Source: Hyphomicrobiales bacterium (lineage in GTDB: Bacteria; Pseudomonadota; Alphaproteobacteria; Rhizobiales; Rhizobiaceae). From it: a stretch of 64,000 nt of DNA. The notes under the pieces are model-generated. The model had not been told where the DNA came from. It saw only the letters and a program-made list of their open reading frames with translations, and searched no databases. Positions within the stretch are counted from its first letter, which is position 1. Every line of letters starts with the position of its first letter. Of the stretch, positions 32,690-61,407 are shown one piece after another. A program made the position numbers and the translations under genes. Location: contig NVSG01000001.1 in NCBI GenBank assembly GCA_002401155.1, positions 905,052-969,051 on the forward strand. Direction: 5' to 3'.

Positions 32690-32733
32690 TTACCTAGGTT
32701 TATAGTTATTTTTTCTCAAAAAAGGGAAGTAAT

Positions 32734-33063
32734 CTATGCAGCATCTCCGCATAATTCATTCGATTGCTGATCAGCACAGCACTCATCTTCAAGGCTGTGC
32801 AAAACACTGGTCAGCATCTCAAGTTCGGCAAAGCAAAACACGCTACGCCCCTGCCTTTGCTGGGTTACCAGCCCGACCTCAACCAGACCGCGCAAATGAA
32901 ACCCAAGGGTCGATGGCGGCACCTCCAAACGCTTGCCAATCTCGCCAATGGTCACCCCGTCCTTGCCCGATTTCAACAACAGTCGAAAAATCGCCAGCCG
33001 GGTCTCATTGCCCAACTCTGCCAATGTGCGTGTAACGTGGTCTGGTTTCATAATAACATCCAT
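32734..33063 (-). CDS. ArsR/SmtB family metalloregulator
   Basis: LGNETRLAIFRLLLKSGKDGVTIGEIGKRLEVPPSTLGFHLRGL. A C-terminal CC pair is present (EDECCADQ). The ORF-track start is 33093. Confidence 0.8.
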   Translation of the reverse strand: MDVIMKPDHVTRTLAELGNETRLAIFRLLLKSGKDGVTIGEIGKRLEVPPSTLGFHLRGLVEVGLVTQQRQGRSVFCFAELEMLTSVLHSLEDECCADQQSNELCGDAA

Positions 33064-33336
33064 AGCATGAGAAAAACAAATAAACAACCACAAAACTAGT
33101 TTTATAGATATGTATGTTTCCCCAGCTCCTCCAGCAAGCCTATGGTTTCATATTCAAGTTTCGATAAATAGTCCAACATCTCCGAAGCTTCATTGATATG
33201 TATCATACCGCCGCTTGCCCCTGCCTGATCAAATAATTCAAACATCTGTATCCGCAGCTATTCATCTATCCGAATTTTACCGTTGAACAAATGCAAGCAG
33301 GCCCATTGCGTTAATGCCCTAAAAAGCCTGATAGGA

Positions 33337-40263: not shown

Positions 40264-40273
40264 AGGTAAACCC

Positions 40274-40680
40274 ATGCGCGAAGCAATCATCGTCTCCACC
40301 GCCTGACAATGAGCTCTTCGCGCAGGGTTACCCACCTGCGTTCCCGGCATGATGCTGGACCGCCAATACGCACCAAGCCTGATTGGCATGGCCCGGTTTT
40401 AGCCGTCCTCAAATTGCTCAATGCCCATGGCTTGAAGGTAGATGATATCGGCCTTTGGGAATTGAACGGTGCGTTTGCCTGTCAGGCCATTTATTATCGC
40501 GACATCCTCGGCATTGATCCCGAAATTACAATGTAGGCGGTGGCGCAATACCCATCGCCGCCCCTATAACATGTCAGGCACCCTTATGACTAGGCATGCA
40601 TTGATTGAAGGAAAGCGAAGAGGTATCAAATACGTCGTTGTAACCATGCGTATGGGCGGGGCGGATTTCTTTAAAATTAC
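40274..40680 (+). pseudogene. thiolase (acetyl-CoA C-acyltransferase) pseudogene: N-terminal stub plus frameshifted C-terminal remnant
   Basis: MREAIIVSTA is followed directly by TGA. Downstream, in shifted frames: GPVLAVLKLLNAHGLKVDDIGLWELNGAFACQAIYYRDILGIDPE, then NVGGGAIPIAAP, then YNMSGTLMTRHALIEGKRRGIKYVVVTMRMGG. The roughly 270-aa middle, including the catalytic Cys, is missing. Confidence 0.8.
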
Positions 40681-40730
40681 ATTAAAACAATCCAGAAGCA
40701 CTTGTAATCATTGTTTAAAATGTAAAATCA

Positions 40731-40763
40731 AACAAAAAACTTACGTTACGTAAGTTTTTTGTT
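40731..40763. terminator. perfect 16-bp palindrome between convergent genes (bidirectional terminator candidate)
   Basis: AACAAAAAACTTACGT-T-ACGTAAGTTTTTTGTT. The A/T runs supply a U-tract in both directions. Confidence 0.55.
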
Positions 40764-40925
40764 GTAATCGATAGGTAACCTGATGTAAGACTTTAGTGTC
40801 AAGAGTCGAAGCACCCCCCAGCCTATTACGCTTTGACAATCAGAGACGAACATTCTTATGAACTTATCTGACTTGACAAAGAAGCCGAGCTAACCACATA
40901 GCTCGGCTTCTTGATTTCAAAATGG

Positions 40926-42853: not shown

Positions 42854-43657
42854 ATGGCAACCATCAATAATCAAAAGTGCGAAGCAACTACTCTCAACGG
42901 AAAACGATGCAAAAACCATAAACTTAACGGAAGTAAATTTTGTAAAGTTCACCAATATATGGATGAATCTCAAATAACATCAGATATATTAAACGATTTC
43001 TTTGATGCTATTCTTGACGTCAAAGTAATCCAAAAAACTGCATCATATATAATACAAGGAATAATCGCGGTTTCTGCTGGAGCCTTAGCGACAACTTTTA
43101 CACTATCTACATTCTTTAACCGTGGCAGTGGCACCCATCTATTCGAAACTGTTTCCGAGTTCATAATACTTGCCGCACCAATTCTATTTTTTGTGTTTGT
43201 AGTATCTATATCGACATCTTTACTTTTACTAAAAATATCAAGCACCTCAACCTTTACCAGCACAATGCCGGAGAAAGAGGACATGACCGAACTTATGCGT
43301 GAACCGCTTCATGAAACCACCCGAAAAACAAGAAGGAATTTACTTTTTATTAGCCTTATTGGCTTCACCATGACATTGGGGGGAATAACGCCAAAAAAAG
43401 TGGACGCGCTTGGTATTGAGGTGACGGATATTAACAAGGCAAATTTACTCATCATCGCTTTTTTTATTATTGGATATTTGCTTCTCTCATTTTCTATATT
43501 TGTTCGAAACGACATTGTTAATTTTATGATCAAAGCGCCTCACATGAAGCGCCACATGAAATCAAATATGTTACTACGGCTATGGTTCGAAGCAGGGTTA
43601 CCGGTAATCGTTGGAGCTTTTTCACTCACATTTTTGCTTAAACAAATCTGGTTTTAG
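42854..43657 (+). CDS. orphan membrane protein with an N-terminal C-X9-C-X10-C-X2-H zinc-ribbon-like motif; low GC
   Basis: KCEATTLNGKRCKNHKLNGSKFCKVH (C9, C19, C30, H33), followed by about 5 hydrophobic helices. Hand-counted 60-nt lines give ~30-32% GC, against ~60% in the neighbouring gene. Confidence 0.65.
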   Translation: MATINNQKCEATTLNGKRCKNHKLNGSKFCKVHQYMDESQITSDILNDFFDAILDVKVIQKTASYIIQGIIAVSAGALATTFTLSTFFNRGSGTHLFETVSEFIILAAPILFFVFVVSISTSLLLLKISSTSTFTSTMPEKEDMTELMREPLHETTRKTRRNLLFISLIGFTMTLGGITPKKVDALGIEVTDINKANLLIIAFFIIGYLLLSFSIFVRNDIVNFMIKAPHMKRHMKSNMLLRLWFEAGLPVIVGAFSLTFLLKQIWF

Positions 43658-43708: not shown

Positions 43709-44956
43709 CTACCACAAAAAATGCCGAGGCGATCCAATCGCTTCCTCATACCACTTCGCCAGAATATCCCGCTCTTCCATCGTGACAGAAGTCAAATTCC
43801 CCGGTGGCATCGCGTTTGAGCGGCCTGCGTGTTTGTAGATCAATTCTGCATGACGAACGATGTCTGCATCTTCTTCCAGCACCACCAGCTTCGGCGTGAT
43901 GGTCAGGCCTTCCCACACGGGCTCCTGCGCATGACACATGGAGCAGCGGCTGATGACGATATCGCGCACCATATCGAAGGATGGCGCATTGGCCAATTTC
44001 AGTTCGGTTTCTGTTGGTGCGTGGCTGGAACTTGCGGTTTCCTCATTGTTCACCGGCCCTGCCTGCGATAGCCACATGATGATAATGAAGCAAATAGTTG
44101 CCACCAGCCATGTCCAATGCGGCTCACCTTTTTTGGCGTGATGCATGTTGAAGAAGTGACGGATAACCACCCCAATCACCAGCACCAGCGCAATGATAAT
44201 CCAGCTATATTGCGTGGAATGGGCTAGCGGATAATGGTTAGAAAGCATCAGAAACAGCACCGGCAAGGTGAGGTAATTATTATGCATCGAGCGCTGTTTT
44301 GCCTGCATACCAAGGGCAGGATCAGGCGCCTTGCCAGCCAAGAGCGCGGCCACTGTTTTCTTCTGGTTGGGAATGATGATCATGATCACATTGGCCGACA
44401 TGATCGTTGCAATCAGCGCGCCCGTATGAACAAACGCCCCGCGCCCGGAAAACACCTGCAAAAAGCCCCAGCCGATCGCCACCACAAAGATAAACACCAG
44501 CACAGAAAGCAGATTGTCATTCTTGCCAATGGGAGAATTACAAAGAAAATTATAAAGCACCCAGCCAAGTATCATGCCGCCAAAGCCGATCCCGATGGCT
44601 TGCCACTGGCTCAAATCATAAATATTGCGATCAATCAAAAACAGCTCCGACGAACCGTAATAAAGGACGCACATCATGAAAAACCCGGAAATCCACGTGG
44701 CATAGGATTCCCATTTAAACCATGTCAGTTCCTCCGGCATGGATGCCGGGGCCACCGTATATTTCTGCATGTGGTAAAACCCGCCCCCATGCACTTGCCA
44801 CGTATCGCCGGAAACACCCTCCGGCAGGCCATCATGCTTTTTCAGGCTCAGATCGAGCGCGATGAAATAAAACGACGAACCAATCCACGCAATCCCGGTG
44901 ATCACATGCACCCAGCGAATTGCAAAATTAAGCCAGTCCCAGACAATCGGCCACAT
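43709..44956 (-). CDS. puuD: urate hydroxylase PuuD (membrane protein with C-terminal cytochrome c domain)
   Basis: N-terminus LNFAIRWVHVITGIAWIGSSFYFIALDLSL, a multi-TM region, and a C-terminal CSMCHAQEP haem site. It sits next to uraH. Confidence 0.85.
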   Translation of the reverse strand: MWPIVWDWLNFAIRWVHVITGIAWIGSSFYFIALDLSLKKHDGLPEGVSGDTWQVHGGGFYHMQKYTVAPASMPEELTWFKWESYATWISGFFMMCVLYYGSSELFLIDRNIYDLSQWQAIGIGFGGMILGWVLYNFLCNSPIGKNDNLLSVLVFIFVVAIGWGFLQVFSGRGAFVHTGALIATIMSANVIMIIIPNQKKTVAALLAGKAPDPALGMQAKQRSMHNNYLTLPVLFLMLSNHYPLAHSTQYSWIIIALVLVIGVVIRHFFNMHHAKKGEPHWTWLVATICFIIIMWLSQAGPVNNEETASSSHAPTETELKLANAPSFDMVRDIVISRCSMCHAQEPVWEGLTITPKLVVLEEDADIVRHAELIYKHAGRSNAMPPGNLTSVTMEERDILAKWYEEAIGSPRHFLW

Positions 44957-44958
44957 AA

Positions 44959-45315
44959 TTAGCTCCCCCTATAGGTTGAGTAGCCAAAAGCCGAAATCAG
45001 CAGCGGCACATGATAGTGCGAGCTTGCATCGGCAATGCCAAAGCGAATGGGAACCACATCAAGAAACAGCGGATCGGGCAAATCCCCACCCTGCTTCTTG
45101 AGATAATCCCCCGCCGCAAAATGCAATTCGTATGTACCAATGGCAAACTCGGTTTCATCCAGTATAGGCCCATCGCAACGCCCATCAGAATTGGTCACAA
45201 CCGATTTCAGCTTTTCCAAAACCCCGTCATTATCGCGATAAAGCGTAATCGCCAGACCACTCGCCGGTTTACCGCTCGCCGTATCCAGAACATGGGTCGT
45301 CAAAAATCCGCTCAT
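44959..45315 (-). CDS. uraH: 5-hydroxyisourate hydrolase
   Basis: Transthyretin-like: [16 protein letters not shown] and the C-terminal [18 protein letters not shown]. Confidence 0.9.
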
Positions 45316-45440
45316 AGCTTGAATGCCTTCAAATATTTTTCACCAAACGCTTGACTGAATCCCACCCCATGCGCATGGTTTTCTCAACGTAAGCCAGTTT
45401 TGACCCTTTAACGCGGTTTGGCAATACCTTCGGCGGCGAC

Positions 45441-46859
45441 ATGAACAGATACCCAAGAGATTTCCGCGGCAACGGCCCAAAAGGGCTCGACCCAAAATGG
45501 CCCAATGGCGCGAAGATCGCCGTTCAGTTCGTCATCAATTACGAAGAAGGCGGCGAGAACAATATCCTGCATGGAGATGCTGCATCCGAAGCGTTCCTTT
45601 CCGAAATCGTAGGGGCTGCCCCATGGCAAGGCCAGCGCCATTGGAACATGGAAACCATCTATGAATATGGCGCACGCGCAGGCTTTTGGCGCTTGCATAA
45701 AATGTTCACAGAATTTGAAATTCCAGTTACCGTTTATGGCGTTGCAACGGCCCTCGCCCGCGCACCGGAACAAGTCGCAGCCATGCAGGAAGCCGATTGG
45801 GAAATCGCCACGCACGGACTAAAATGGATCGAATATAAAGACTACACACCAGAAGCCGAACGCGCCGATATCGTAGAAGCAATCCGCCTCCACACCGAAG
45901 TCACCGGCAGCGCTCCGCAAGGCTGGTATACGGGCCGCTGCTCAATCAATACCGTTGATCTCGTTTCCGAGCAAGAAGGCATAGCCTATTGTTCCGACTC
46001 TTATTCTGACGATCTACCCTATTGGCATGACACAGGCGAAAAGCCCTTGCTCGTCATCCCCTACACCCTCGATAGCAACGACATGCGCTTTGCAATTCCG
46101 GCGGGGTTCAACAGCGGCGACCCGTTCTACACCTACCTCAAAGACTCCTTCGATATCCTCTATGCCGAGGGCTGCGAAGGCGCGCCAAAAATGTTCAACA
46201 TCGGCCTCCATTGCCGCATCGTTGGACGCCCCGGACGTATCGCCGCGCTCAAACGATTCATCGAATATGCGATGGGCCATGAAGATGTGTGGTTCCCGCG
46301 CCGCATCGATATCGCCAATCACTGGTTTGAGCATCACCCCTATAAACCATTCGACCGTCCAAGCCGGATGGAGCAGAAAAAATTCGTCGCCACCTATGGC
46401 GGTGTATTTGAGCATTCCCCATGGATTGCCGAGCGCGCCCACGCAGATGAACTCGGCCCCGCCCATGATTGCGCCGTGGGCCTCCATTCCGCATTAGCCA
46501 GAAAATTCCGCTCCGCAAGCCATGACGAAAAACTAGGCGTTCTAAACGCCCATCCAGACCTTGCCGGAAAGCTCGCGGCAGCCAAACAGCTCACCGCAGA
46601 ATCCACCAGCGAACAAGCCGCCGCCGGTCTCGACGCATTGACCGACGAAGAGCGCACCACCTTCACTGGCCTCAATAACGATTACGTCGCTAAGTTCAGT
46701 TTCCCTTTCATCATCGCTGTAAAAGGTCTGACCAAATCTGACATATTGGCAGCATTCAAAAGCCGTATTAATAACGACGCAGAAGCCGAATTTTCCACTG
46801 CTTGCCAACAAGTAGAAAAAATTGCCCGCCTGCGCCTCAACGACCTGCTACCGGAGTAA
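45441..46859 (+). CDS. puuE: fusion of PuuE-type allantoinase (polysaccharide deacetylase fold) and OHCU decarboxylase
   Basis: The N-terminal ~300 aa carry YPRDFRGNGP...INYEEGGE...HG of PuuE. The C-terminal ~165 aa carry FVATYGGVFEHSPWIAERA...LNAHPDLAGK...FPFIIAVKG of UraD. Confidence 0.85.
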   Translation: MNRYPRDFRGNGPKGLDPKWPNGAKIAVQFVINYEEGGENNILHGDAASEAFLSEIVGAAPWQGQRHWNMETIYEYGARAGFWRLHKMFTEFEIPVTVYGVATALARAPEQVAAMQEADWEIATHGLKWIEYKDYTPEAERADIVEAIRLHTEVTGSAPQGWYTGRCSINTVDLVSEQEGIAYCSDSYSDDLPYWHDTGEKPLLVIPYTLDSNDMRFAIPAGFNSGDPFYTYLKDSFDILYAEGCEGAPKMFNIGLHCRIVGRPGRIAALKRFIEYAMGHEDVWFPRRIDIANHWFEHHPYKPFDRPSRMEQKKFVATYGGVFEHSPWIAERAHADELGPAHDCAVGLHSALARKFRSASHDEKLGVLNAHPDLAGKLAAAKQLTAESTSEQAAAGLDALTDEERTTFTGLNNDYVAKFSFPFIIAVKGLTKSDILAAFKSRINNDAEAEFSTACQQVEKIARLRLNDLLPE

Positions 46860-46864
46860 ATATT

Positions 46865-47905
46865 TTGCAAGACTCAACTGACACCCCCTTGCCCGATTTC
46901 ATCGATGGCACCATCAATCTAGCCTCCGCCAGTCTTGGCGCAACGGCGGTTTTCGCAACCGATGATTTCTTCGCCCCCCTCTCACGCATGTTGAATGACG
47001 GCGATGCTATATTCGTTCCCGATAAATATGACGACAACGGCAAATGGATGGATGGCTGGGAATCCCGACGCAAACGCACCCCCGGCCATGATTGGGCAAT
47101 CATCAAACTGGCCCGCCCCGGCACCATTGCCGGTTTCGATATCGATACAGCCCATTTCACCGGCAACAATGCACCTGCAGCCTCAATCGAAGCGGTGCAA
47201 ATGGACGAAGGCGAAGTGCCCGACGAGAATTCCGATTGGCAGGAAATTCTATCAACGAAAATCCTCAGCCCCGACAGCCATCATTTTCACCCGATTGATG
47301 AAGACGAAATGGGCGAAAAAGTCTGGACCCATTTGCGCCTACACATCTATCCAGATGGCGGCGTTGCAAGATTACGGGTCTATGGCCAAAGCCATTTTGA
47401 CTGGAGCAAGGTGAAGGATAATCAGCAGATCGATCTGGCCTTCCTGTTTCATGGAGCCAAACCCCTGAACTGGTCCGACTCTCACTACGGTTCTCCGGAA
47501 AAACTGCTAACCCCCGGCAGAGGCGTCGATATGGGCGATGGCTGGGAAACCGCACGACGCCGCGGCCCCGGCTATGATTGGGTTATCATTAAATTAGGCC
47601 ATGCGGGCACCATCTCGGATATCATCATCGATACGGCACACTTTAAGGGCAATTATCCCGAAACTGGCGAAGTGTTGGGAGCATACCTTCCGGACCTCGA
47701 CGCCCGGTTATCGCTTGGAGAAATAGATAAATCCGAGGATTGGGAAGTCATCCTGCCACAGCAAAAATTGAAGATGGACCACATCCATAAATACAGCTCA
47801 AAAAAGCTAACCTCAAAAGAACCGGTAACCCATATCCGTTTCAACATTCGCCCTGATGGGGGCGTAAGCCGGTTACGGATTAACGGCAAAATCTTCCGCG
47901 GTTAG
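46865..47905 (+). CDS. alc: allantoicase
   Basis: Two allantoicase repeats (DGWESRRKR...DTAHFTGN and DGWETARRR...DTAHFKGNYP). TTG 46865 lies 5 nt after the upstream stop and is preceded by GGAG. The ORF-track start is 46802. Confidence 0.85.
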   Translation: MQDSTDTPLPDFIDGTINLASASLGATAVFATDDFFAPLSRMLNDGDAIFVPDKYDDNGKWMDGWESRRKRTPGHDWAIIKLARPGTIAGFDIDTAHFTGNNAPAASIEAVQMDEGEVPDENSDWQEILSTKILSPDSHHFHPIDEDEMGEKVWTHLRLHIYPDGGVARLRVYGQSHFDWSKVKDNQQIDLAFLFHGAKPLNWSDSHYGSPEKLLTPGRGVDMGDGWETARRRGPGYDWVIIKLGHAGTISDIIIDTAHFKGNYPETGEVLGAYLPDLDARLSLGEIDKSEDWEVILPQQKLKMDHIHKYSSKKLTSKEPVTHIRFNIRPDGGVSRLRINGKIFRG

Positions 47906-51955: not shown

Positions 51956-52025
51956 GCAAATTGTCTCATCTCACGAATACTTTATTCGTGATCAATTATT
52001 TGTATAAACCGACAAATTTAATCAT

Positions 52026-52052
52026 ACCCGGAGCAGCGCTTCGGGTGTTTTT
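52026..52052 (+). terminator. rho-independent terminator upstream of the RiPP cluster
   Basis: ACCCGGAGC-AGC-GCTTCGGGT, 9 bp including one G-U pair, followed by GTTTTTA. Confidence 0.55.
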
Positions 52053-52187
52053 ATGTGCAACTTCAAATAGATAGAGAGAACGCCCAAACCAACAACCGAC
52101 TTCACGAAAGCGTTAATTGCTAGTCATCGGCGAGTTTGGTCAAAGTGAACCACCCACTCTGGGAAATCATATTTGGAGAATTAATCA

Positions 52188-52451
52188 ATGAAACATACCG
52201 GAAAATCAGGCGCAACGCTTGCAGCAGCAGCATTTGCATTGGCTATCACTGGTTCAGCAATGACCATTTCTACACCATCATTTGCAGCTGACAACGTTCA
52301 GTGCTTCGGCGTAAACTCATGCAAAGGCCAGAGCGCTTGCAAAACCGCTAAATCTTCTTGCAAAGGCTTGAACAGCTGCAAAGGTCAGGGCTTCCTTGAA
52401 ATGACCAAAGATGATTGCTCCGCAAAAGGCGGCACACTAACTCAGGGTTAA
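52188..52451 (+). CDS. bufA: secreted 6-Cys RiPP precursor peptide (bufferin / DUF2282-related)
   Basis: 87 aa. A Sec signal ends SFA-AD. The mature 54 aa are ADNVQCFGVNSCKGQSACKTAKSSCKGLNSCKGQGFLEMTKDDCSAKGGTLTQG. GGAG lies 9 nt upstream. The gene sits immediately upstream of the DUF692 and DUF2063 genes. Confidence 0.8.
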   Translation: MKHTGKSGATLAAAAFALAITGSAMTISTPSFAADNVQCFGVNSCKGQSACKTAKSSCKGLNSCKGQGFLEMTKDDCSAKGGTLTQG

Positions 52452-52483
52452 TTCTCCTAAGAGTACAAATTTGACGAATGACG

Positions 52484-52513
52484 ACTCGCCCGGGCAAACT
52501 CGGGCGAGTTTTT
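52484..52513 (+). terminator. intrinsic terminator/attenuator between the precursor and modification genes
   Basis: ACTCGCCCG-GGCAAACT-CGGGCGAGT, a perfect 9-bp stem, followed by TTTTT, 33 nt after the bufA stop. Confidence 0.7.
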
Positions 52514-52568
52514 GCTTTCAGCACCACACTGTTTTATACAATCTCCATGTTTAGCAGGAAATCAAACC

Positions 52569-53426
52569 ATGATTGATAAGCCTCCCTTCCTTGGATTCGG
52601 ACTTGGGCTGAGACCTCAGCATTATCCCGAAATTCTTGATGCAGAAACAGAACTGCCCATCGACTGGTTCGAGATAATTTCCGAAAATTATATGGTCGAA
52701 GGCGGTCGCCCGCTACAAATGCTCGATCGCATCAAGGAGCGCTATCCGGTCGTCATGCACGGCGTATCCATGTCGATTGCATCCACGGCTCCGCTGAACA
52801 TGGAATATCTCGGCAGACTAAAAAAGCTCGCAGACCACGCCAATCCAAAATGGATTTCCGATCATCTGTGCTGGACCGGCGTCCACGGCGTAAACCTCCA
52901 CGATTTACTGCCCATTCCCTATACCGAGGAAGCATTGAACCACGTGGCCGGACGCATATCCCAGGTTCAGGATTTCCTTGGCCGCCGCATCGCCATCGAA
53001 AACGTCTCTTCTTATATAGAGTTCGAAGAATCCGAAATGGACGAATGGACCTTCGTTGCCGAAATCGCAAAACGTGCCGATTGCTGGCTGCTATTGGACG
53101 TCAATAACGTATTCGTCTCCGGCCAAAACCACCAGTTCGACGATGGCAATTTCATTGAACAAATCCCTGTTGAGCGCGTGGTGCAATTTCATCTCGCGGG
53201 CCACAGCGAAGGCGAAGACGTCCTCATCGACACCCACGACCAGCCGGTTTGCGACGAGGTTTTTGAACTCTACGAAAATGCACTCAAGCGCTTCGGCCCG
53301 GTCTCTACCATGATCGAACGCGACGACAACATCCCGCCACTGGCAGAATTACTGGCTGAGTTAGACCGCGCCCGCGAAATTGCATCCGGGGTTCTTTCGC
53401 CGGAACAATTGAAAACCGCCGCCTGA
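52569..53426 (+). CDS. bufB: DUF692 / MNIO family enzyme (MbnB/TglH/BufB-like RiPP Cys-modifying oxidase)
   Basis: Motifs LGFGLGLRPQHY, DWFEIISENYM, HGVSMSIAS, ISDHLCW, IENVSSYIEF, LLLDVNNVFVS, FHLAGH, IDTHD, MIERDDNIP. I place the start at ATG 52569; the ORF-track start is 52512. Confidence 0.85.
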   Translation: MIDKPPFLGFGLGLRPQHYPEILDAETELPIDWFEIISENYMVEGGRPLQMLDRIKERYPVVMHGVSMSIASTAPLNMEYLGRLKKLADHANPKWISDHLCWTGVHGVNLHDLLPIPYTEEALNHVAGRISQVQDFLGRRIAIENVSSYIEFEESEMDEWTFVAEIAKRADCWLLLDVNNVFVSGQNHQFDDGNFIEQIPVERVVQFHLAGHSEGEDVLIDTHDQPVCDEVFELYENALKRFGPVSTMIERDDNIPPLAELLAELDRAREIASGVLSPEQLKTAA

Positions 53427-54214
53427 TGGCCAAAAACCTCGCAAACCTTCAATCGCAAATGCAAAACGATATTTTAAAACGCGAGAGCCGCGTCTTAAAA
53501 CGCTTTTCCGTCCCCAAACACACCACGGCCGAAAAACGTTTCGCCGTCTATCAGGACGCCTATCAGATACGCCTCATTGAGGTGCTATCGGAAGATTATG
53601 AAAACACATGGAAATATCTGGGCGACGAACAGTTTTATAAATTGGCCGTTGAATATATAAAAGCCCACCCCTCGGACCAGACCAATATGCGCTGGTTTGG
53701 CAGACATTTTCCAGAATTTTTAACCCAATGCTCCCTCTCCAGCGATCATCCAATTCTCACAGAAATCGCGTCAATTGAAAAAGCCATCGAAGACGCGTTC
53801 GATGCAGTCGATGACCAAACAGCCACCATGGAGAATTTGGCCGCAATCCCTCCCGAGGCAATCACCGGGCTAACCTTCAAGCTTAAATCTGCCTGCCGCC
53901 TGCTCCGCCAGCAAACCAACGCCTTGGACATCTATATGGCTCTGGTAAACGAACAAACGCCCGATGCTCTGGAGAGTTTTGACCAGCCCCGCCACACCCT
54001 CGTTTGGCGCAACGATATGATGTGCCAATATCGTGCACTGGACGCAGAAGAAGGCATGTTGGTCGACCTGATGTTTGACGGCAAGGACTTTGCCCTGATG
54101 TGCGAGATGGCAGCAACCATGCGCGATGCCGATAGTGCCGCCACCAGAGTTGCAGGGCATATCACCAACTGGTTGCAAACACAGGTGATCTCAGAATTGA
54201 TCATTGCCAAATAG
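53426..54214 (+). CDS. bufC: DUF2063 protein (MNIO partner / precursor-recognition subunit, BufC-like)
   Basis: RFAVYQDAYQIRLIEVLSEDYENTWKYLGDEQFYKLAVEYIKAHPS...RWFGRHFPEFL. The start overlaps the bufB stop by 1 nt (TGATG). Confidence 0.75.
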   Translation: MAKNLANLQSQMQNDILKRESRVLKRFSVPKHTTAEKRFAVYQDAYQIRLIEVLSEDYENTWKYLGDEQFYKLAVEYIKAHPSDQTNMRWFGRHFPEFLTQCSLSSDHPILTEIASIEKAIEDAFDAVDDQTATMENLAAIPPEAITGLTFKLKSACRLLRQQTNALDIYMALVNEQTPDALESFDQPRHTLVWRNDMMCQYRALDAEEGMLVDLMFDGKDFALMCEMAATMRDADSAATRVAGHITNWLQTQVISELIIAK

Positions 54215-54260: not shown

Positions 54261-55220
54261 ATGAGTAGTCACGGATATGATGAAGGCAGACTGAACCTGC
54301 CATTTGTTGGCCACGCCACTTTTGGTAAACAACCCCCATGCCTCAACTGGGACGAGATTGAAGCAGACGTAGCAATCCTCGGCGCACCGTTTGATTTTGG
54401 CACCCAATACCGCCCCGGAGCAAGGTTCGGCCCCCGCGCCATCCGCGAAGCTTCAACACTTTTCTCCTTTGGCCATGCCGGTGCCTACGACCACGAGGAT
54501 GACGCCATCTACCTGCCGGGCAGCGTGCGCATCGTCGATATGGGCGATGCTGATATCATCCACACCAACACAGAACAAAGCCATAAAAATATAGAATTCG
54601 GCGTTCGCAAAGCACTTGCTGCCGGTGCGTTGCCCGTCGTTTTAGGCGGCGATCACTCGGTCAATATCCCCTGCATCCGTGCCTTTGACGATCAGGAACC
54701 CATCCATCTGGTGCAAATCGATGCCCACCTCGATTTCGTCGATGTGCGTCACGGCGTCACCAATGGCCATGGCAACCCCATGCGCCGCGCCGCAGAGCAA
54801 GACCACGTCACCGGCCTCTCCCAACTCGGCATCCGCAATGTTTCGTCCACAGCTAAAGATGGATACGAGGATGCACGAAAAAGAGGCTCGGATATTCTTT
54901 CTGTACGCCAATTCCGAAAACTGGGCGTCGAAGCTGTCCTTGCCCGCATACCAAGCGATGTACGTTATTATGTAACCATCGATATCGATGGCTTCGATCC
55001 TTCAATAGCCCCCGGCACAGGCACACCAAGCCATGGTGGTTTCCTCTACTACGAAGTACTGGAGCTGCTGCAAGGGCTCACCAAACAAGGTGAGATCGCT
55101 GGCATAGATTTGGTCGAGGTCGCCCCCGATTACGACCATTCCGGCATAACCGGTTTTCTTGCCGCCCAAATTCTACTCAATTTTCTGGGCTTTATTTTCC
55201 ACCAGCGTAGTCTGAAATAA
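54261..55220 (+). CDS. ureohydrolase (agmatinase/guanidino-acid hydrolase family)
   Basis: Mn-site motifs GGDHSV, DAHLDF and DIDGFDPSIAPGTGTP. GAGGAG precedes ATG 54261. The ORF-track start is 54204. Confidence 0.85.
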   Translation: MSSHGYDEGRLNLPFVGHATFGKQPPCLNWDEIEADVAILGAPFDFGTQYRPGARFGPRAIREASTLFSFGHAGAYDHEDDAIYLPGSVRIVDMGDADIIHTNTEQSHKNIEFGVRKALAAGALPVVLGGDHSVNIPCIRAFDDQEPIHLVQIDAHLDFVDVRHGVTNGHGNPMRRAAEQDHVTGLSQLGIRNVSSTAKDGYEDARKRGSDILSVRQFRKLGVEAVLARIPSDVRYYVTIDIDGFDPSIAPGTGTPSHGGFLYYEVLELLQGLTKQGEIAGIDLVEVAPDYDHSGITGFLAAQILLNFLGFIFHQRSLK

Positions 55221-55247
55221 TTCGTGCCTAGACCAAGAGACAAGCCC

Positions 55248-56498
55248 ATGCAGAAATTCAATTCGATTGATAAGCAAACCCAAATGCATCGCCTGATGCA
55301 AATAAAAAATGGCGAGAAAGCATGGTCGCCGTTTTCCGATGACGAAATGGATCGCAGACAAGATGACATGCGTGCCTATATGGCAGAAAATGACATCGAT
55401 GCGGTCATCTTCACCAGCTATCATTGTGTCAATTATTATGCCGGGTTTCTCTATTGCTCCTTTGGACGAAAATACGCCTGTATCATCGATAAAGACAATC
55501 TCACTACTCTCAGCGCCGGTATAGATGGTGGGCAGCCCGCCCGCATGACCTATGGCAACAACGTCACCTACACCGATTGGCGCCGTGATAATTTTTTCTT
55601 TGGCCTACAGGAAATTATAATTAGTTCTTCGAGAACGAGAATAATGCGCATCGGCATCGAGTTCGACCATTTGAGCATCGAATATTATAAACAGCTGGAA
55701 GCTGCTTTCCCCGAAGCAGAATTCGTCAATATAGCTAAAGCCTCCATGTGGATGCGCACGGTCAAGTCACCTGAGGAAATTCAACTCATCACCACCAGCG
55801 CCCAAATCGCAGATTATGGCGGCAGGATGTGCGTCGAGGCAATTCACGCCGGTGCCCGCGAAAATGAAGTGGCCCTTGCCGCCACCAATGCCATGGTCAA
55901 AAGGATCGCCGCCACCTTCCCCCGTGTGGAACTGATGGACACATGGACATGGTTCCAGTCCGGTATCAACACCGATGGCGCCCACAATCCGGTTACCAAC
56001 AAAAAGATAAAGTCCGGCGATATCCTCTCCCTCAATTGCTTTCCAATGATGTTTGGCTATTACACCGCCCTTGAACGCACCCTGTTTTGTGAGCATGCAA
56101 GCGACGAACATTTAAGACTGTGGGAGATCAATTGCGAAGTCCACCGCGCCGGTCTGAAACTAATACGCCCGGGAGTTAAATGCAGCGACATCGCAAAAAT
56201 GCTCAATGAGCTTTACGAATACCATGATTTATTAAAATACCGCTCTTTCGGCTACGGCCATTCCTTTGGCGTACTGAGCCATTATTATGGCCGGGAAGCC
56301 GGCGTTGAGTTGCGCGAAGACGTGGATACCATTTTAGAACCGGGCATGATTGTTTCCATGGAGCCAATGATAATGATCCCGGAAGGAATACCTGGAGCCG
56401 GAGGTTACCGCGAACACGATATTTTGGTAATCGAGGAATCAGGTGCAGAAAACATCACCAAATTCCCCTTCGGCCCGGAACATAACATTATCAAATAG
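55248..56498 (+). CDS. creatinase (creatine amidinohydrolase)
   Basis: Colinear from memory with Pseudomonas putida creatinase. Motifs: IFTSYHCVNYYAGFLYCSFGR, DGGQP, ELMDTWTWFQSGINTDGAHNPVT, GDILSLNCFPM, YYTALERTLF, HSFGVLSHYYGREAG, GAGGYREHDILV, ENITKFPFGPE. The start is either 55248 or 55284. Confidence 0.9.
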   Translation: MQKFNSIDKQTQMHRLMQIKNGEKAWSPFSDDEMDRRQDDMRAYMAENDIDAVIFTSYHCVNYYAGFLYCSFGRKYACIIDKDNLTTLSAGIDGGQPARMTYGNNVTYTDWRRDNFFFGLQEIIISSSRTRIMRIGIEFDHLSIEYYKQLEAAFPEAEFVNIAKASMWMRTVKSPEEIQLITTSAQIADYGGRMCVEAIHAGARENEVALAATNAMVKRIAATFPRVELMDTWTWFQSGINTDGAHNPVTNKKIKSGDILSLNCFPMMFGYYTALERTLFCEHASDEHLRLWEINCEVHRAGLKLIRPGVKCSDIAKMLNELYEYHDLLKYRSFGYGHSFGVLSHYYGREAGVELREDVDTILEPGMIVSMEPMIMIPEGIPGAGGYREHDILVIEESGAENITKFPFGPEHNIIK

Positions 56499-56724
56499 TC
56501 TTATCCTATGAGATTCTATCACAATCTAATCTATTGAATTCAAACATCTAACGCCACAGCGGCAGCTTAAACCACGGATATTTTCGGTTTATGACGCTAA
56601 TACGACACAATCTGCCGCTTTGGCATTGACCAATCATCATCAACAGGCTTCACTATCGTTAATTAAAGGGAGCGGGCAAAAACCAACTTTAGATTGGGTT
56701 GCCCAAAATATAGAGTGACCATGC

Positions 56725-57813
56725 ATGGCCGCAAGTGACGCGTTTGTTCGTTTCGAAAAAGTTCAAAAAAGTTATGACGGTGAAATTCTCGTCGTAAAAG
56801 ATTTAAATCTCGATATCGCAAAGGGTGAGTTTCTCACGATGCTCGGGCCATCGGGCTCTGGAAAAACCACTTGTTTGATGATGCTGGCAGGGTTCGAACC
56901 TGCCACCAATGGCGATATTTACCTTGATGGCACCTCCATCAACCACGTACCGCCCCACAAGCGCGGCATTGGCATGGTGTTTCAAAATTACGCCCTGTTC
57001 CCTCATATGTCGGTTGCGGAAAACCTCGCTTTTCCACTGCAAGTTCGCAATATGGGCCAAGCTGAAATCAAGGAAAAAGTGCAGCGCACCCTCGATATGG
57101 TCGAGCTTGGTGCTTTTGGTGATCGTCGCCCAGCACAACTTTCTGGTGGCCAGCAACAACGCGTGGCCGTTGCCCGTGCCCTCGTTTTTGAACCCGATCT
57201 AATCTTGATGGATGAGCCGCTTGGCGCTCTCGACAAGCAATTGCGCGAGCAAATGCAATATGAAATCAAACACATCCACGAACAACTTGGCGTAACCGTT
57301 GTTTATGTGACCCACGACCAGACCGAAGCTTTGACCATGTCTGACCGGGTTGCTGTTTTCGAAGATGGCGTCATTCAGCAATTATCGACACCACAGGAGC
57401 TTTACGAAAACCCAAAAAACGCATTCGTTGCTCAGTTCATCGGCGAGAACAATAGATTGCTTGGCGTTGTCGAAAAAATCAAAGGCAATAATTGCACCGT
57501 GAAGCTCGACGATGGCACCATCATTAAGGCTGACCGGGTCAATGTAAGCAGCGTGGGCGAGCGCAGCTCTTTGTCTCTCCGCCCTGAGCGCATTGAGATT
57601 GACCCGCCAAAATCCATGGAAAATCATCTCACGGGCGTTATTCGTGAACTGATTTATCTTGGAGACCACATTCGTGTTCGCATGGATGTCGCTGGCAATG
57701 ACGAGTTCATCGTTAAAGTGCGCAACCGTGCCGACAAGCGGGATTTAAGTGAAGGCCAGAAAGTCAAAATTGGGTGGAAATCAAGCGATTGTAAAGCGCT
57801 GGATGTCCGCTAA
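56725..57813 (+). CDS. ABC transporter ATP-binding protein (PotA-like)
   Basis: Motifs [31 protein letters not shown], plus a C-terminal TOBE-like domain. Confidence 0.9.
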
Positions 57814-57914
57814 CAATTCAATTTGAATTAGTACCCCCGGCTATTGGCCGGAACCGGGTACATAATAGCCGTTTCATCCTTGATGAAACAAATTACAAAA
57901 AAAGGGAGAACATT

Positions 57915-59003
57915 ATGAAACTCACGAAACTCCTTGCATCAACCCTTGTAGGCGTTAGCCTGCTCGCTGGTGCAACAGTTGCAAACGCCGGTGAAATCAC
58001 CGTCGTATCCTGGGGTGGTGCTTACACCAAATCTCAGGTTGAAGCCTATCACAAGCCTTGGATGGCAGCGACCGGCAACGTCATCAAGTCGGAAGACTAT
58101 AATGGTGGGGTCGCCGAGATCAAAGCCCAGGTTGAAGCAGGAAATGTTAGCTGGGACATCGTCGACGTTGAACTTTCCGATGCCATTCGCGCATGCGATG
58201 AAGGCCTTCTGGAAACAATCGATGCCTCTACTTTGCCAGCCGGTGCCGATGGCACATCTGCACAAGATGATTTCATCGAAGGCACATTGCATGATTGCGC
58301 AGTAGCAAGCATTGTTTGGTCCACAATCTTTGCATATGATAAGGAAAAGTTCCCGGACGCTGGTCCAACAACCATGGCTGATTTCTTCAACGTGGCTAAA
58401 TTCCCCGGTAAACGTGGCCTACGCAAAGGCGCAAAAGTGAACCTTGAGTTCGCTCTGATCGCTGACGGCGTACTAGCCAAAGACGTTTACGAAGTGCTTG
58501 CCACACCTGAAGGCGTTGATCGCGCATTCAAAAAACTCGACACCATCAAAGGTGACGTTGTTTGGTGGGAAGCTGGCGCTCAGCCTCCACAGCTTTTGGC
58601 TGATGGCGAAGTTTCCATGACAACTGCTTATAATGGTCGTATTTTCAATGCAGTTGCTGGCGAAGGCAAAGCATTTGAAATCGTTTGGGACGGTCAAGTT
58701 TGGGATTTGGATCTTTGGGTAATTCCAAAAGGTACAAAAAACAAAGAGCTGGCAATGGAATTCCTGAAATTCTCAACAGCAACAGAACAACTTGCTGCTC
58801 AGGCTTCATACATTTCCTACGGTCCTGCTCGTAAGTCTTCGTCTTCTTTGGTTGGAAAATATCACAACAAAGACATCGACATGGGCCCTGAAATGCCTAC
58901 AAACCCGGACAATCTGAAAAACGCTGTACAAAACAACTTCAACTTCTGGGCAGATAATGCCGATCAGTTGAACGAGCGTTTCAATGCTTGGCTTGCTGGC
59001 TAA
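57915..59003 (+). CDS. ABC transporter periplasmic substrate-binding protein (PotD/PotF-like)
   Basis: The signal peptide ends VANA-GE, followed by ITVVSWGGAY. Confidence 0.85.
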   Translation: MKLTKLLASTLVGVSLLAGATVANAGEITVVSWGGAYTKSQVEAYHKPWMAATGNVIKSEDYNGGVAEIKAQVEAGNVSWDIVDVELSDAIRACDEGLLETIDASTLPAGADGTSAQDDFIEGTLHDCAVASIVWSTIFAYDKEKFPDAGPTTMADFFNVAKFPGKRGLRKGAKVNLEFALIADGVLAKDVYEVLATPEGVDRAFKKLDTIKGDVVWWEAGAQPPQLLADGEVSMTTAYNGRIFNAVAGEGKAFEIVWDGQVWDLDLWVIPKGTKNKELAMEFLKFSTATEQLAAQASYISYGPARKSSSSLVGKYHNKDIDMGPEMPTNPDNLKNAVQNNFNFWADNADQLNERFNAWLAG

Positions 59004-59019
59004 TCAGCAAAAACAATAC

Positions 59020-59054
59020 GGAGATGCGCAAATTTGCGCATCTCCATTCATTTT
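59020..59054 (+). terminator. intra-operon hairpin plus T-rich tail after the binding-protein gene
   Basis: GGAGATGCGCAA-AT-TTGCGCATCTCC, perfect 12-bp arms, then ATTCATTTT. Confidence 0.55.
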
Positions 59055-59069
59055 CGGGAACCAAACCAC

Positions 59070-60368
59070 ATGACCAGCACAACACTTGATCAAAAAGACA
59101 TAAGCGACGCATCTGCCGACGCATTGATCATGGTCGATGGCGTTCCCCTCAAACAAAAACTGGCCGAGACCACCAAAAAGCAACGCTCAAGAGCATTGCT
59201 GCTAACCGTGCCGCTGGTGCTGTTTCTAGTCATCAGTTTCGTCATACCCATTGGCCAAATGCTGTTCCGCTCGGTACACAATCCCGCCGGTTCAAACGTA
59301 TTACCCAATTTTGCAATAGCCATTCAGGATTGGGACGGTAAAGGATACCCTTCCGAAGCCATGTTTGAGCTGTTCGTCAAGGATATGCAGAACGCCCGCA
59401 AAAAACGCGAAATCGGCAAGACGGTCGGCAATCTTGCAACCCGCATGAATTACACCATTCCCGGCACAAGAAGCCTGTTCACATCCACTTCGAGAAAACT
59501 GTCCAAGGTCACCGAAGGCCCCTATAAAGAGGCGCTGTTCAAGATTGATAAAAAGTGGGAAAATAAAGTAATTTGGCGCAATCTGAAACGGGTTTCGCGC
59601 GACTATACCATAGCTTTTTATCTTGCCGCTCTCGACCATAAATTCGATGATGACGGCGATATCATTGCCGCTGACAAGCTCTACCAGATTTACGTGTCCA
59701 ACTTTTTCAAGACCTTAAAACTGTCGGCAATCATCACTTTCTTATGCCTGCTCATTGCTTTTCCGGTATCTTACCTGCTGTCGATCCTGCCGCTCAGAAC
59801 TTCCAATCTGCTGATGATTTTGGTGCTGCTGCCGTTCTGGACATCCTTGCTGGTTCGAACCACCGCGTGGATTGCGATCCTGCAAACCCAAGGCATCCTC
59901 AATAATATTCTGGTCTCTATCGGCCTCGTTTCTGATGATGGCCGCATCCAGATGATTTATAACCAGACCGGCACGATCATTGCCATGGTACACATATTGC
60001 TGCCCTTTATGATCCTGCCGTTATTTTCGGTAATGAAGACCATCCCGCCGAGCTATATGCGCGCAGCGCGTTCCATGGGCGCAACGCCGTTCACAGCTTA
60101 TCGCAGGGTTTATTTCCCGCTCACCTTGCCGGGGATTGCAGCTGGTACCTTGCTCGTATTTATCTTGGCCATTGGCTATTACATCACCCCTGCCCTCGTC
60201 GGCGGCGAAGATGGTCTGCTGATTTCCAATCTGATCGCCTACCACATCAAAAGCTCCTTGAACTGGAGCCTTGGTGCTGCACTTGGCACGATCCTGCTGG
60301 TAACCGTTCTGGTGCTCTACTGGGTCTACAACAAACTTGTCGGCATCGACAAACTAAGCTTCGGGTGA
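59070..60368 (+). CDS. ABC transporter permease (PotB-like) with an extended N-terminal region
   Basis: The C-terminal half carries a binding-protein-dependent permease domain with an EAA-type loop (MRAARSMGATPFTAYRRVYFPL). I place the start at ATG 59070. The ORF-track start at 59034 lies inside the hairpin. Confidence 0.85.
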   Translation: MTSTTLDQKDISDASADALIMVDGVPLKQKLAETTKKQRSRALLLTVPLVLFLVISFVIPIGQMLFRSVHNPAGSNVLPNFAIAIQDWDGKGYPSEAMFELFVKDMQNARKKREIGKTVGNLATRMNYTIPGTRSLFTSTSRKLSKVTEGPYKEALFKIDKKWENKVIWRNLKRVSRDYTIAFYLAALDHKFDDDGDIIAADKLYQIYVSNFFKTLKLSAIITFLCLLIAFPVSYLLSILPLRTSNLLMILVLLPFWTSLLVRTTAWIAILQTQGILNNILVSIGLVSDDGRIQMIYNQTGTIIAMVHILLPFMILPLFSVMKTIPPSYMRAARSMGATPFTAYRRVYFPLTLPGIAAGTLLVFILAIGYYITPALVGGEDGLLISNLIAYHIKSSLNWSLGAALGTILLVTVLVLYWVYNKLVGIDKLSFG

Positions 60369-60375
60369 CGGCGCA

Positions 60376-61407
60376 ATGAATTTAAAGAAACATCATATCG
60401 CTTTCATCATCGCTTGTGCGCTGGTCCTGTTGATCACCGGCCGCATATCGGTGCTGATCGGCTTCTTTGCATTGTTTGGAACGCCGCTATTCTTCATGAA
60501 AGAATTGCCACCTTTCGCCTCAACCCTTGATCGAATTTGGCAATATACCTTCCTGACGATCTGCACCTTCATATTTGTGTTCCTGATCACCCCGATCCTG
60601 ATCATCATACCATTATCGTTTAACGTGGAACCTTATTTCACCTTCACCGAAGGCATGATGTCCTTTGATCCCGCTGCATATTCGCTGCGCTGGTATCAGG
60701 ATATTTTCCACAACGGCATGACCAACCCCGATGCAGAAGGCAGTGCATGGTATAGCGACATGTGGAATAACGCCCAATGGGTGCGTGCCATGCGTAACTC
60801 GTTCTTCATCGCCTTCTTCGCAACCATTTTGGCCACGAGCCTTGGAACGCTGGCAGCCCTTGGCCTGTCACGGCCAGAGATGCCTTATCGCGGACTGATC
60901 ACAGGCCTGCTCATTTCGCCAATGATTGTGCCGCTAGTGATTACGGCAACTGGTATGTTCTTTTTCTATTCAGATATCGGCCTCGCAAAAACCTTTCCGG
61001 GCGTCATTCTAGCCCACACAACGCTGGGCATTCCCTTCGTCATCATCACAGTAACAGCAACGCTGTCAGGCTTTGACCAGTCGCTAATCCGCGCATCCCA
61101 AGGCATGGGCGCTAATGGCTGGACCACATTCAGAAAAGTCATCATGCCGCTAATCCTGCCGGGCATGATCTCCGGCGCATTATTTGCCTTCATCACTTCA
61201 ATGGATGAGGTCGTTGCGGTAATTTTCCTCGCCGATGTTGATCAACGAACCATCCCGCGCCAAATGTTCTCAGGCATTCGCGAACAAATCTCGCCAACCA
61301 TTTTGGCCGTTGCAACCATTCTAGTGGCAATCTCGATTGTGTTGCTATCGGTTTTGGAAATACTAAGACGCCGCTCAGAACGCATGCGCGGTCTGGCTCC
61401 GTCATAA
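60376..61407 (+). CDS. ABC transporter permease (PotC-like)
   Basis: EAA-type loop IRASQGMGANGWTTFRKVIMPL and about 6 TM helices. Confidence 0.85.
   Translation: MNLKKHHIAFIIACALVLLITGRISVLIGFFALFGTPLFFMKELPPFASTLDRIWQYTFLTICTFIFVFLITPILIIIPLSFNVEPYFTFTEGMMSFDPAAYSLRWYQDIFHNGMTNPDAEGSAWYSDMWNNAQWVRAMRNSFFIAFFATILATSLGTLAALGLSRPEMPYRGLITGLLISPMIVPLVITATGMFFFYSDIGLAKTFPGVILAHTTLGIPFVIITVTATLSGFDQSLIRASQGMGANGWTTFRKVIMPLILPGMISGALFAFITSMDEVVAVIFLADVDQRTIPRQMFSGIREQISPTILAVATILVAISIVLLSVLEILRRRSERMRGLAPS

Follow-up and report, generated by a model that had tools for sequence, protein, structure and literature searches.

Three co-directional genes on the forward strand (52188..54214) of a 64,000-nt stretch of DNA, referred to here as the window, carry the label 'hypothetical protein' in the annotation of their source, a marine Hyphomicrobiales metagenome-assembled genome (MAG). 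A sequence-only reading had assigned these genes to a bufferin-type cluster and had pointed to three apparent departures from the textbook layout, i.e. a short six-Cys precursor, a lack of DoxX and regulatory genes, and a location between lipid-metabolism and guanidino-compound catabolism genes. The locus therefore raises the question of whether it is a bufferin operon and, if so, whether it is an unusual one. In our assessment, with a probability of roughly 0.86, it represents a canonical bufA2-bufB-bufC operon of the Buf2 (BUF_6/12Cys) family, within the 'Cys-Lys' captophorin group, and would direct synthesis of an exported, Cys-modified copper-binding peptide, its chemistry, order of export, disulfide and copper binding being predicted by homology with Buf1 and Buf2 of Caulobacter vibrioides. 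The family to which the locus belongs has been catalogued in 864 complete genomes, Buf2 ranks second in size among the bufferin families, and the locus is an ordinary, real but not unusual member of a family known from thousands of bacteria.

Gene identity and layout of the bufA2-bufB-bufC locus

The coordinates of the three genes and of associated features are compiled in Table 1. All three ORFs were recovered as proposed. The product of the first exceeded the cut-off of 60 bits of the NCBIfam equivalog model NF050166 (Cu_RiPP_BufA2) with a score of 97.6 bits, and a homologue search returned more than 1000 precursor homologues; no Pfam family, PF10048 (DUF2282) included, matched the precursor at E <= 0.01. 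The second product, whose translation contains every DUF692 motif that had been quoted for it, scored 381.7 bits (E 2e-114) against PF05114 and 387.8 bits against NF050167 (MNIO_BufB; cut-off 310), while remaining under the cut-offs of the HvfB (NF003818; 291.4 bits against 360) and MbnB (TIGR04159; 77 bits against 325) models. The third product was matched by PF09836 (DUF2063) over residues 8-99 with 75.4 bits, and stayed under all NCBIfam equivalog cut-offs (HvfC, 33 bits against 142). The profile searches that the sequence-only reading had proposed returned DUF692, DUF2063 and the 6/12-Cys precursor model, and the 'hypothetical protein' genes can be renamed bufA2, bufB and bufC, two of them being identified outright by curated models.

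Table 1. Features of the bufA2-bufB-bufC locus and its flanks, in window coordinates
Feature	Position	Strand	Remarks
SCP2 terminator	52024..52048		Upstream of bufA
Conserved upstream block GACTTCACGAAAGCGTTAATTGCTAGTCATC, candidate promoter/operator of bufA	52096..52128	+	Near-invariant in related sequences
Shine-Dalgarno GGAG of bufA	52175..52178	+	9 nt before ATG; read from the sequence
bufA2, precursor gene	52188..52451	+	87 aa; NCBIfam NF050166 BufA2
Sec-signal-like region of the precursor	52188..52286	+	Residues 1-33
Mature core of the precursor	52287..52448	+	Residues 34-87; 54 aa, six Cys
Intrinsic-terminator-like hairpin and T-tract, bufA2-bufB spacer	52483..52520	+	Terminator scan
Hairpin within the preceding feature	52483..52510	+	12-bp stem, 4-nt loop
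bufB, MNIO (formerly DUF692)	52569..53426	+	285 aa; PF05114 and NF050167 MNIO_BufB
bufB stop codon TGA	53424..53426	+	
bufC start codon ATG	53426..53428	+	
bufC, PME-type 1 partner	53426..54214	+	262 aa; PF09836
Ureohydrolase gene	54261..55220	as bufC	46-nt gap after bufC
Creatinase gene	55224..56498	as bufC	641 bits to 7YTO, creatine amidinohydrolase

The one-base overlap between the bufB stop and bufC start codons (TGATG), noted previously, was read directly from the sequence. An alternative TTG start codon for bufB at 52512 was rejected, as it lies inside the T-tract of the spacer terminator and the gene calls of relatives use the ATG. The A-B-C gene order was shown to be kept in approximately 74 of the 80 closest loci, and TTTGGAGAAT at the Shine-Dalgarno site of bufA is present in all six relatives compared.

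Conserved residues of the precursor, the oxidase and its partner

The presence of a Sec signal followed by a six-Cys mature region in the precursor was upheld. The signal call is based on charge, hydrophobicity, cut-site residues and the lipobox: residues 2 and 6 of the region are Lys, its hydrophobicity peaks at a Kyte-Doolittle value of 2.27, S-F-A directly precedes the predicted cleavage site, and a lipobox Cys is lacking. Within the mature core, the Cys residues occupy positions 6, 12, 18, 25, 31 and 44, a 5-5-6-5-12 spacing that recurs in 72 of 83 relatives. Lys follows exactly the four central Cys residues and neither the first nor the last (x-K-K-K-K-x), a pattern common to most relatives. 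Across 86 precursor sequences, the six Cys residues as well as N43, G47, N62 and G66 are invariant. The n-region of the signal peptide matched the core in conservation (0.80 against 0.75); the authors who described the bufferin family have suggested that the recognition sequence includes the signal peptide. AlphaFold2 modelled the precursor with low confidence (pLDDT 58.3), and the published beta-pair plus helix was only weakly echoed; at this confidence the model is unsuited to Cys-Cys geometry or a fold search, and it gives no independent support for proximity of CysI and CysVI.

All nine iron ligands of MbnB (H54, H90, E133, D163, N166, H192, D208, H210 and E239; PMC9060507) were found to align with identical residues in BufB (H64, H99, E144, D177, N180, H208, D221, H223 and E250). 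The last of these opens an E-R-D-D motif (residues 250-253), which is present in all 81 loci (the window and the 80 closest), whereas 3BWW, a Haemophilus DUF692 protein and the best PDB sequence match of BufB (168 bits), and MbnB both contain ERDF. MNIOs of the Cys-Lys type have been reported to carry, right after the catalytic Asp, an Asp that contacts the substrate Lys, instead of the Phe of other MNIOs (PMC13097082); D253 of BufB was equated with FonB-F250 and BufB2-D251 by alignment of the motif rather than by direct alignment to those proteins.

BufC was shown to consist of an N-terminal helical DUF2063 domain and a C-terminal RRE-like domain, and its AlphaFold2 model was of high confidence (pLDDT 94.3). 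Sequence and profile searches found no relative of BufC in the PDB. A Foldseek search with the model returned TglI (8HI7_A and 8HCI_A; TM 0.61-0.63) and TbiB1 RRE domains (rmsd 1.9 A), with MbnC as a weak fold match only (E 1.0); the DUF2063 crystal structure cited in the literature, 3DEE, was not among the top matches. The equivalog models for precursor and enzyme, the iron ligands and the TglI/RRE fold match of the partner together bear out the assignment to the bufferins.

That the cluster is cryptic or decaying, without a functional product, as its 'hypothetical protein' label in the source MAG might be taken to imply, is scarcely credible. The three ORFs are intact, with all catalytic, specificity and Cys positions conserved; conservation among relatives extends to the terminator and the ribosome-binding sites, and the GC content of the locus matches that of the surrounding genome.

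A route from precursor to product can be proposed for a functional Buf2 operon. In the cytoplasm, the RRE-like domain of BufC would bind the precursor and present it to the iron enzyme BufB, and the unusually conserved signal peptide would probably form part of what BufC recognises. In Buf2 of Caulobacter vibrioides, the central Cys residues carry a mass shift of -4.03 Da, with no modification of CysI or CysVI (PMC11626156). By analogy, BufB and O2 would perform a four-electron oxidation of each central Cys that precedes a Lys (precursor C45, C51, C58 and C64), each oxidised Cys being predicted to become a 5-thiooxazole with a loss of ~4 Da. Sec would then export the modified precursor, with cleavage following S-F-A(33), a disulfide would link C39 and C77, the outermost Cys residues, in the periplasm, and the folded 54-aa peptide may chelate Cu(I) and Cu(II) via its thiooxazoles, and so buffer periplasmic copper.

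Candidate promoter region and structured bufA-bufB spacer

In the region upstream of bufA, the conserved block was found to differ hardly at all between six related sequences, among them the divergent locus L088, in contrast to its variable flanks, and no match to a sigma-70 consensus was found. Three motifs picked out by eye in the 5' leader of bufA, namely a SigF-like GTAACC-N16-CGAA, a sigma-54 motif and a CsoR-like TACCC...GGG, were rejected or left unassigned, as their key bases are not kept in the related loci L001, L081 or L088. Rfam and tRNA scans identified a tRNA-Gln only, far from the locus. The start of transcription is expected in the interval from the SCP2 terminator to bufA, the conserved block being its probable site.

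The hairpin located in the bufA-bufB spacer includes eight G-C pairs in its stem, is followed by TTTTTGCTTT and has a predicted energy of -21.4 kcal/mol; the spacer as a whole displayed a z of -2.3 against shuffled sequences. In close relatives the hairpin is preserved by compensatory changes, with the exception of L088, in which the spacer is wholly absent. Spacers of 73 related loci exhibited a mean z of -2.47, with 97% below 0, although these loci share kinship and do not represent independent samples.

The structure suggests that the spacer acts as an attenuator favouring precursor transcripts; alternatively, it could be a full terminator or a stabiliser of the bufA message. As an attenuator, it would stop most transcripts at the hairpin and T-tract, with a fraction reading into the translationally coupled bufB-bufC pair, and the precursor message would as a result exceed the enzyme message. 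Such attenuation would explain how the substrate comes to outnumber the enzyme. The hairpin is also a point to bear in mind in the design of constructs for heterologous expression. A structured spacer or terminator after bufA was not mentioned in the bufferin family literature searched, and represents a modest addition, and the sole one, to the known picture of Buf2. For the rest, the locus contributes a marine Hyphomicrobiales example to the bufferin family and has little significance beyond annotation.

Gene neighbourhood and relation to known systems

The cluster is preceded by acyl-CoA ligase and SCP2 genes and followed by ureohydrolase and creatinase genes, in agreement with the setting described by the sequence-only reading. 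The absence of nearby DoxX, sigma/anti-sigma and metal-regulator genes was likewise substantiated, as Pfam searches of ORFs of at least 110 aa, tblastn searches with DoxX and NrsF queries, and inspection of unannotated gaps revealed no DoxX, sigma/anti-sigma or copper genes in the 64-kb window. The facts behind the three supposed departures are therefore correct; their interpretation as departures is not, since all three are normal for Buf2. Six Cys residues occur in 90% of Buf2 precursors (PMC12452194). The founding C. vibrioides buf2ABC cluster lacks a DoxX gene, and DoxX is dispensable for the modification and function of Buf1 (PMC11626156), while Buf1 clusters, unlike those of Buf2, have been reported to contain sigma/NrsF genes (PMC12452194). 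Among the 80 closest loci, DoxX is absent within 6 kb in 59, was located upstream of the cluster in 21 by screening for hydrophobic ORFs, and was found directly 3' of bufC in none; the flanking genes vary across these loci.

The same surroundings bear on the role of the peptide. Copper responsiveness is unsupported at this particular locus, because the 64 kb contain no copper-homeostasis or regulator genes, and the position of the cluster among catabolic genes, the heterogeneous flanks of related loci and the MerC-Buf2 fusions and the potential involvement of other metals noted in the literature (PMC12452194) would each fit a peptide with the same thiooxazole chemistry that serves another purpose, be it binding of a different metal, delivery of copper to cuproenzymes, or protection against redox or sulfur stress. 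We consider such a role improbable, as the two characterised bufferins are induced by copper and protect against it, Buf1 being copper-selective (PMC11626156), and the specificity and ligand residues encoded in the window are canonical. Furthermore, missing local metal genes are typical of Buf2 clusters. The Caulobacter gene for the regulator SigF is a neighbour of buf1 and not of buf2 (PMC11626156). A copper-buffering peptide accordingly remains the preferred reading.

The genes downstream of bufC lie on the same strand, with no terminator in between, which would be compatible with a larger unit, with the ureohydrolase and creatinase genes sharing a transcript with bufC and their products linked in function to the peptide, for example by tailoring it or by being clients of the metallophore. 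The same gene order is present in L081, a near-identical metagenome contig, L001 retains the creatinase after bufC, and a creatininase-family gene immediately follows bufC in 17 Bradyrhizobium-type loci. However, among the 80 genome loci and the window, the ureohydrolase was found in the window only (and, outside this set, in L081), and the creatinase in the window, L001 and L081 only; as these are all very close relatives, their arrangement is explained by shared ancestry. Moreover, the creatinase is a bona fide one and has a matching ABC transporter downstream of it, the two forming a self-sufficient catabolic module, and the Bradyrhizobium-type gene scores below the cut-offs for both true creatininase and MftE, so that its resemblance to the creatinase of the window was judged a coincidence of superfamily names. 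A functional tie of this kind is hence highly improbable, and the operon is taken to comprise bufA2, bufB and bufC. A broader proposal, which we regard as tentative and more doubtful than not, is that a widely conserved, previously unreported stem-loop or terminator after the precursor gene sets a high precursor-to-enzyme transcript ratio in Buf2 operons by attenuation, and that in this lineage read-through from bufC into the creatine/guanidino catabolism genes may tie the metallophore to nitrogen-compound catabolism rather than to a dedicated copper regulon.

The locus was compared with four known groups of systems. Methanobactin biosynthesis (MbnABC) involves an iron enzyme, MbnB, that is homologous to BufB, folds as a TIM barrel and has its metal ligands at identical positions. 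As predicted for BufB, MbnB oxidises Cys residues of a ribosomal peptide to generate a copper ligand; the system differs in its oxazolone-thioamide pairs, the lack of a Sec signal, the MbnC partner and a secreted chalkophore as product. The Lys-Cys captophorins (oxazolin HvfABC of Haemophilus, gonophorin and fontiphorin FonABC) combine an MNIO with a PME-type 1 partner and a signal-peptide precursor, as does the locus studied here, and their 5-thiooxazoles and link to copper would be held in common with its predicted product; they are distinguished by EGKCG repeats and by Phe after the catalytic Asp, where the window encodes the C-K motif and Asp, respectively.

Buf1 systems (C. vibrioides buf1ABCD and the Cupriavidus gig operon) share the pair of MNIO and DUF2063-RRE partner, and their Sec-exported precursors, conversion of Cys to 5-thiooxazole and periplasmic copper chelation are likewise expected for the window. 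Their precursors contain four Cys residues and belong to PF10048, in contrast to the six-Cys precursor described here, and DoxX is usually, and sigma/NrsF often, part of their clusters without being obligatory; neither is present in the 64 kb analysed. Finally, C. vibrioides buf2ABC (CCNA_03001-02999; BufA2/BufB2/BufC2) was compared through the equivalog models named after it and its published description rather than by sequence alignment. The core measures 54 aa in the window and 61 aa in Caulobacter Buf2, the host is a marine Hyphomicrobiales MAG, and SigF/NrsF genes do not occur in the 64 kb of the window. In both cases, an A-B-C trio without DoxX encodes a precursor with a Sec signal and six Cys residues, together with an MNIO and a DUF2063-RRE partner, and the four central Cys residues, each part of a C-K motif in the window, correspond to those that are modified in Caulobacter.

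Identity of the buf gene products

The three co-directional ORFs described in the sequence-only reading were found exactly as stated (see the table below), as was the TGATG overlap, in which direct reading of the sequence assigned base 53426 to both the bufB stop codon (TGA) and the bufC start codon (ATG). The buf locus is single-copy, with a GC content equal to that of its surroundings. Among species-level genomes, that of a marine Rhizobiaceae MAG is the nearest (BufB 91% identical), and BufC is 100% identical to a Hyphomicrobiales MAG protein annotated as 'hypothetical protein'.

Coordinates of the buf genes and associated non-coding elements in the window
Feature	Position	Strand	Description
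bufA (ORF1)	52188..52451	+	Precursor, 87 aa
bufB (ORF2)	52569..53426	+	MNIO-type oxidase, 285 aa counted from ATG
bufC (ORF3)	53426..54214	+	DUF2063 partner protein, 262 aa
Intrinsic-terminator-like hairpin	52483..52510		Between bufA and bufB; 12-bp stem, -21.4 kcal/mol, then TTTTTGCTTT
Conserved block, candidate promoter or operator	52096..52128		Upstream of bufA; kept among relatives

Profile searches returned the families anticipated for all three proteins. ORF1 exceeded the cut-off of the NCBIfam equivalog 'BufA2 family periplasmic bufferin-type metallophore' (97.6 bits; cut-off 60) and had no match in a Pfam profile search. ORF2, whose translation contains every DUF692 motif previously quoted, matched PF05114 (MbnB_TglH_ChrH; 381.7 bits) in Pfam and 'MNIO family bufferin maturase' in NCBIfam (387.8 bits; cut-off 310), with the NCBIfam models for HvfB, ApyH, MbnB and ChrH all remaining under their cut-offs. 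The NCBIfam matches are decisive for the identity of ORF1 and ORF2. Residues 8-99 of ORF3 matched PF09836 (DUF2063; 75.4 bits) in Pfam.

The precursor shows both a Sec-type N-terminus, with Lys2 and Lys6, a hydrophobic stretch and S-F-A ahead of the predicted cut, and the claimed six-Cys mature region, a 54-aa remainder with Cys at mature positions 6, 12, 18, 25, 31 and 44. The precursor family is very large (>1000 matches), and an alignment of 86 of its sequences showed no variation in the six Cys or in the N-x-C-K-G elements. Conservation of the signal-peptide n-region equalled that of the core, which fits the suggestion in the family literature that recognition by the enzyme complex includes the signal peptide. 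Furthermore, Lys follows Cys only at the four central Cys, in agreement with mass spectrometry of Caulobacter vibrioides Buf2, which showed modification of the central Cys and none of CysI or CysVI (PMC11626156). Many relatives (e.g. loci L011, L024, L025, L028, L035, L036, L043, L050 and L054) carry a tandem pair of BufA2-like precursor genes 5' of a single bufBC, compared with one precursor gene in the window.

BufB could be aligned to MbnB (7TCR), TglH (8HCI) and, best of all, the Haemophilus DUF692 structure 3BWW. The iron ligands of MbnB (His54, His90, Glu133, Asp163, His192, Glu239, Asn166, Asp208 and His210; PMC9060507) correspond, in that order, to H64, H99, E144, D177, H208, E250, N180, D221 and H223. 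Directly after the catalytic Asp, 'Cys-Lys' MNIOs such as BufB2 carry an Asp that faces the substrate Lys, and others a Phe (PMC13097082); E-R-D-D was observed in the window BufB and in 81/81 loci examined, and E-R-D-F in 3BWW and MbnB.

No PDB relative of BufC was found at the sequence level. An AlphaFold2 model built from a 71-sequence alignment (pLDDT 94.3) gave TglI, the partner protein of the MNIO TglH, as its best full-length fold match (TM 0.61-0.63), and the predicted C-terminal domain resembles TbiB1 RRE domains, which bind leader peptides (rmsd 1.9 Å).

Non-coding elements around bufA

The hairpin between bufA and bufB is kept via compensatory changes in the related loci L001, L081 and L085. 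In a set of 73 related loci, the spacer that separates bufA from bufB was far more structured than dinucleotide shuffles (mean z -2.47; z<0 in 97% and <-2 in 58% of values), figures that overstate independence since these loci share kinship. In locus L088, the precursor of which is 77% identical to that of the window, bufB starts three bases past the bufA stop (L088:734-738), leaving neither spacer nor hairpin; the terminator is therefore not universal. Judged from sequence, the hairpin may be read as an attenuator that would provide surplus precursor transcript, and attenuation giving precursor excess is common logic in RiPP operons. A post-bufA hairpin is mentioned in neither of two bufferin family papers.

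Further upstream, the SCP2 stop codon and the SCP2 terminator (52024..52048) enclose an inverted repeat with perfect 9-bp arms (TCACGAATA-ctt-TATTCGTGA; 51971..51991). This repeat may bind a protein; L081 and L085 have an identical copy, and one arm is degenerate in L001 and L087.

Genomic surroundings in the window and in related loci

The lipid-metabolism and guanidino-catabolism flanks noted previously were both recovered: genes for SCP2 and an acyl-CoA ligase lie upstream, and those for a ureohydrolase, a genuine creatinase (7YTO matched at 641 bits) and an ABC transporter lie downstream. This neighbourhood is common only to the very close relatives L001 and L081, and thus reflects ancestry rather than functional linkage. 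The downstream genes form a creatine/guanidino-compound catabolism module (54261..61407) with a polyamine-type transporter; its ureohydrolase gene (closest solved relatives agmatinase 1WOG and guanidinobutyrase 3NIO) follows bufC after 46 nt without a terminator, and is missing in L001 and present in L081.

Elsewhere in the window, a purine-catabolism cluster (43709..47905) encodes a membrane-type urate oxidase (PF06181), HIU hydrolase, a polysaccharide-deacetylase/OHCU-decarboxylase fusion and allantoicase. A 662-nt gap (40264..40925) with thiolase C-terminus-like short ORFs in two frames is probably, from its sequence, a frameshifted pseudogene. The only metal(loid)-type genes of the window encode a regulator of the ArsR family and an ArsP-like permease (31571..33093), and are ~20 kb away from bufABC. 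Five ORFs of 144-469 aa (1184..2329, 2351..3436, 7419..7853, 25140..26549 and 42854..43657) had no family match at E<=1e-5 (Pfam) or E<=1e-3 (NCBIfam).

Among the 80 closest related loci, 17 Bradyrhizobium/Xanthobacteraceae-like ones (L024, L025, L027, L028, L029, L032, L033, L035, L036, L038, L042, L043, L047, L051, L054, L055 and L061) carry a creatininase-family gene 3' of bufC on the same strand, mostly at a spacing of ~-4 to +30 nt (PF02633, 156 bits; under the NCBIfam cut-offs for creatininase and MftE). A conserved ~323-aa protein without family match comes next in 19 loci (examples of these extra genes: L032:7637-8428 and L034:7689-8660). Both may serve a sub-clade of Buf2 as additional genes for tailoring or processing, and may have been missed by the published family survey, which admitted unrelated genes to a cluster only at gaps of 10 bp or less. 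In two gammaproteobacterial-type loci, a DsbB gene (PF02600, ~160 bits) lies directly 3' of bufC (L052:2357-2848 and L059:6537-7028), fitting the need of the mature peptide for a periplasmic disulfide.

Comparison with the Buf2 family

The sequence-only reading regarded the short six-Cys precursor, the lack of DoxX and regulatory genes and the metabolic surroundings as departures from the textbook layout. All three features are present; as departures they do not stand, being normal for Buf2, the second largest bufferin family, with precursors known from 864 complete genomes. Six Cys occur in 90% of Buf2 precursors, and sigma/NrsF genes are reported in Buf1 (four-Cys DUF2282) clusters and not in Buf2 clusters (PMC12452194); DoxX is dispensable even for Buf1 (PMC11626156). 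The survey of the 80 closest loci agrees with this literature: gene order was A-B-C in ~74/80, DoxX was located 3' of bufC in none and within 6 kb in 21, upstream in every case, NrsF was found in two, and flanking genes were otherwise heterogeneous. The reported absence of DoxX and sigma/anti-sigma genes holds across the full 64 kb of the window, in which there are no copper genes either.

The published Buf2 pathway is the likeliest mechanism here, with chemistry and metal role both assigned by homology. In the cytoplasm, BufB and BufC would convert four Cys into 5-thiooxazoles, after which the modified peptide would leave via Sec with cleavage of its signal, acquire the CysI-CysVI disulfide and buffer copper in the periplasm. 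The founding cluster, C. vibrioides buf2ABC, is without a DoxX gene (PMC11626156), as is the window, and the present cluster, rightly recognised as bufferin-type from the outset, is an ordinary Buf2 bufferin cluster.
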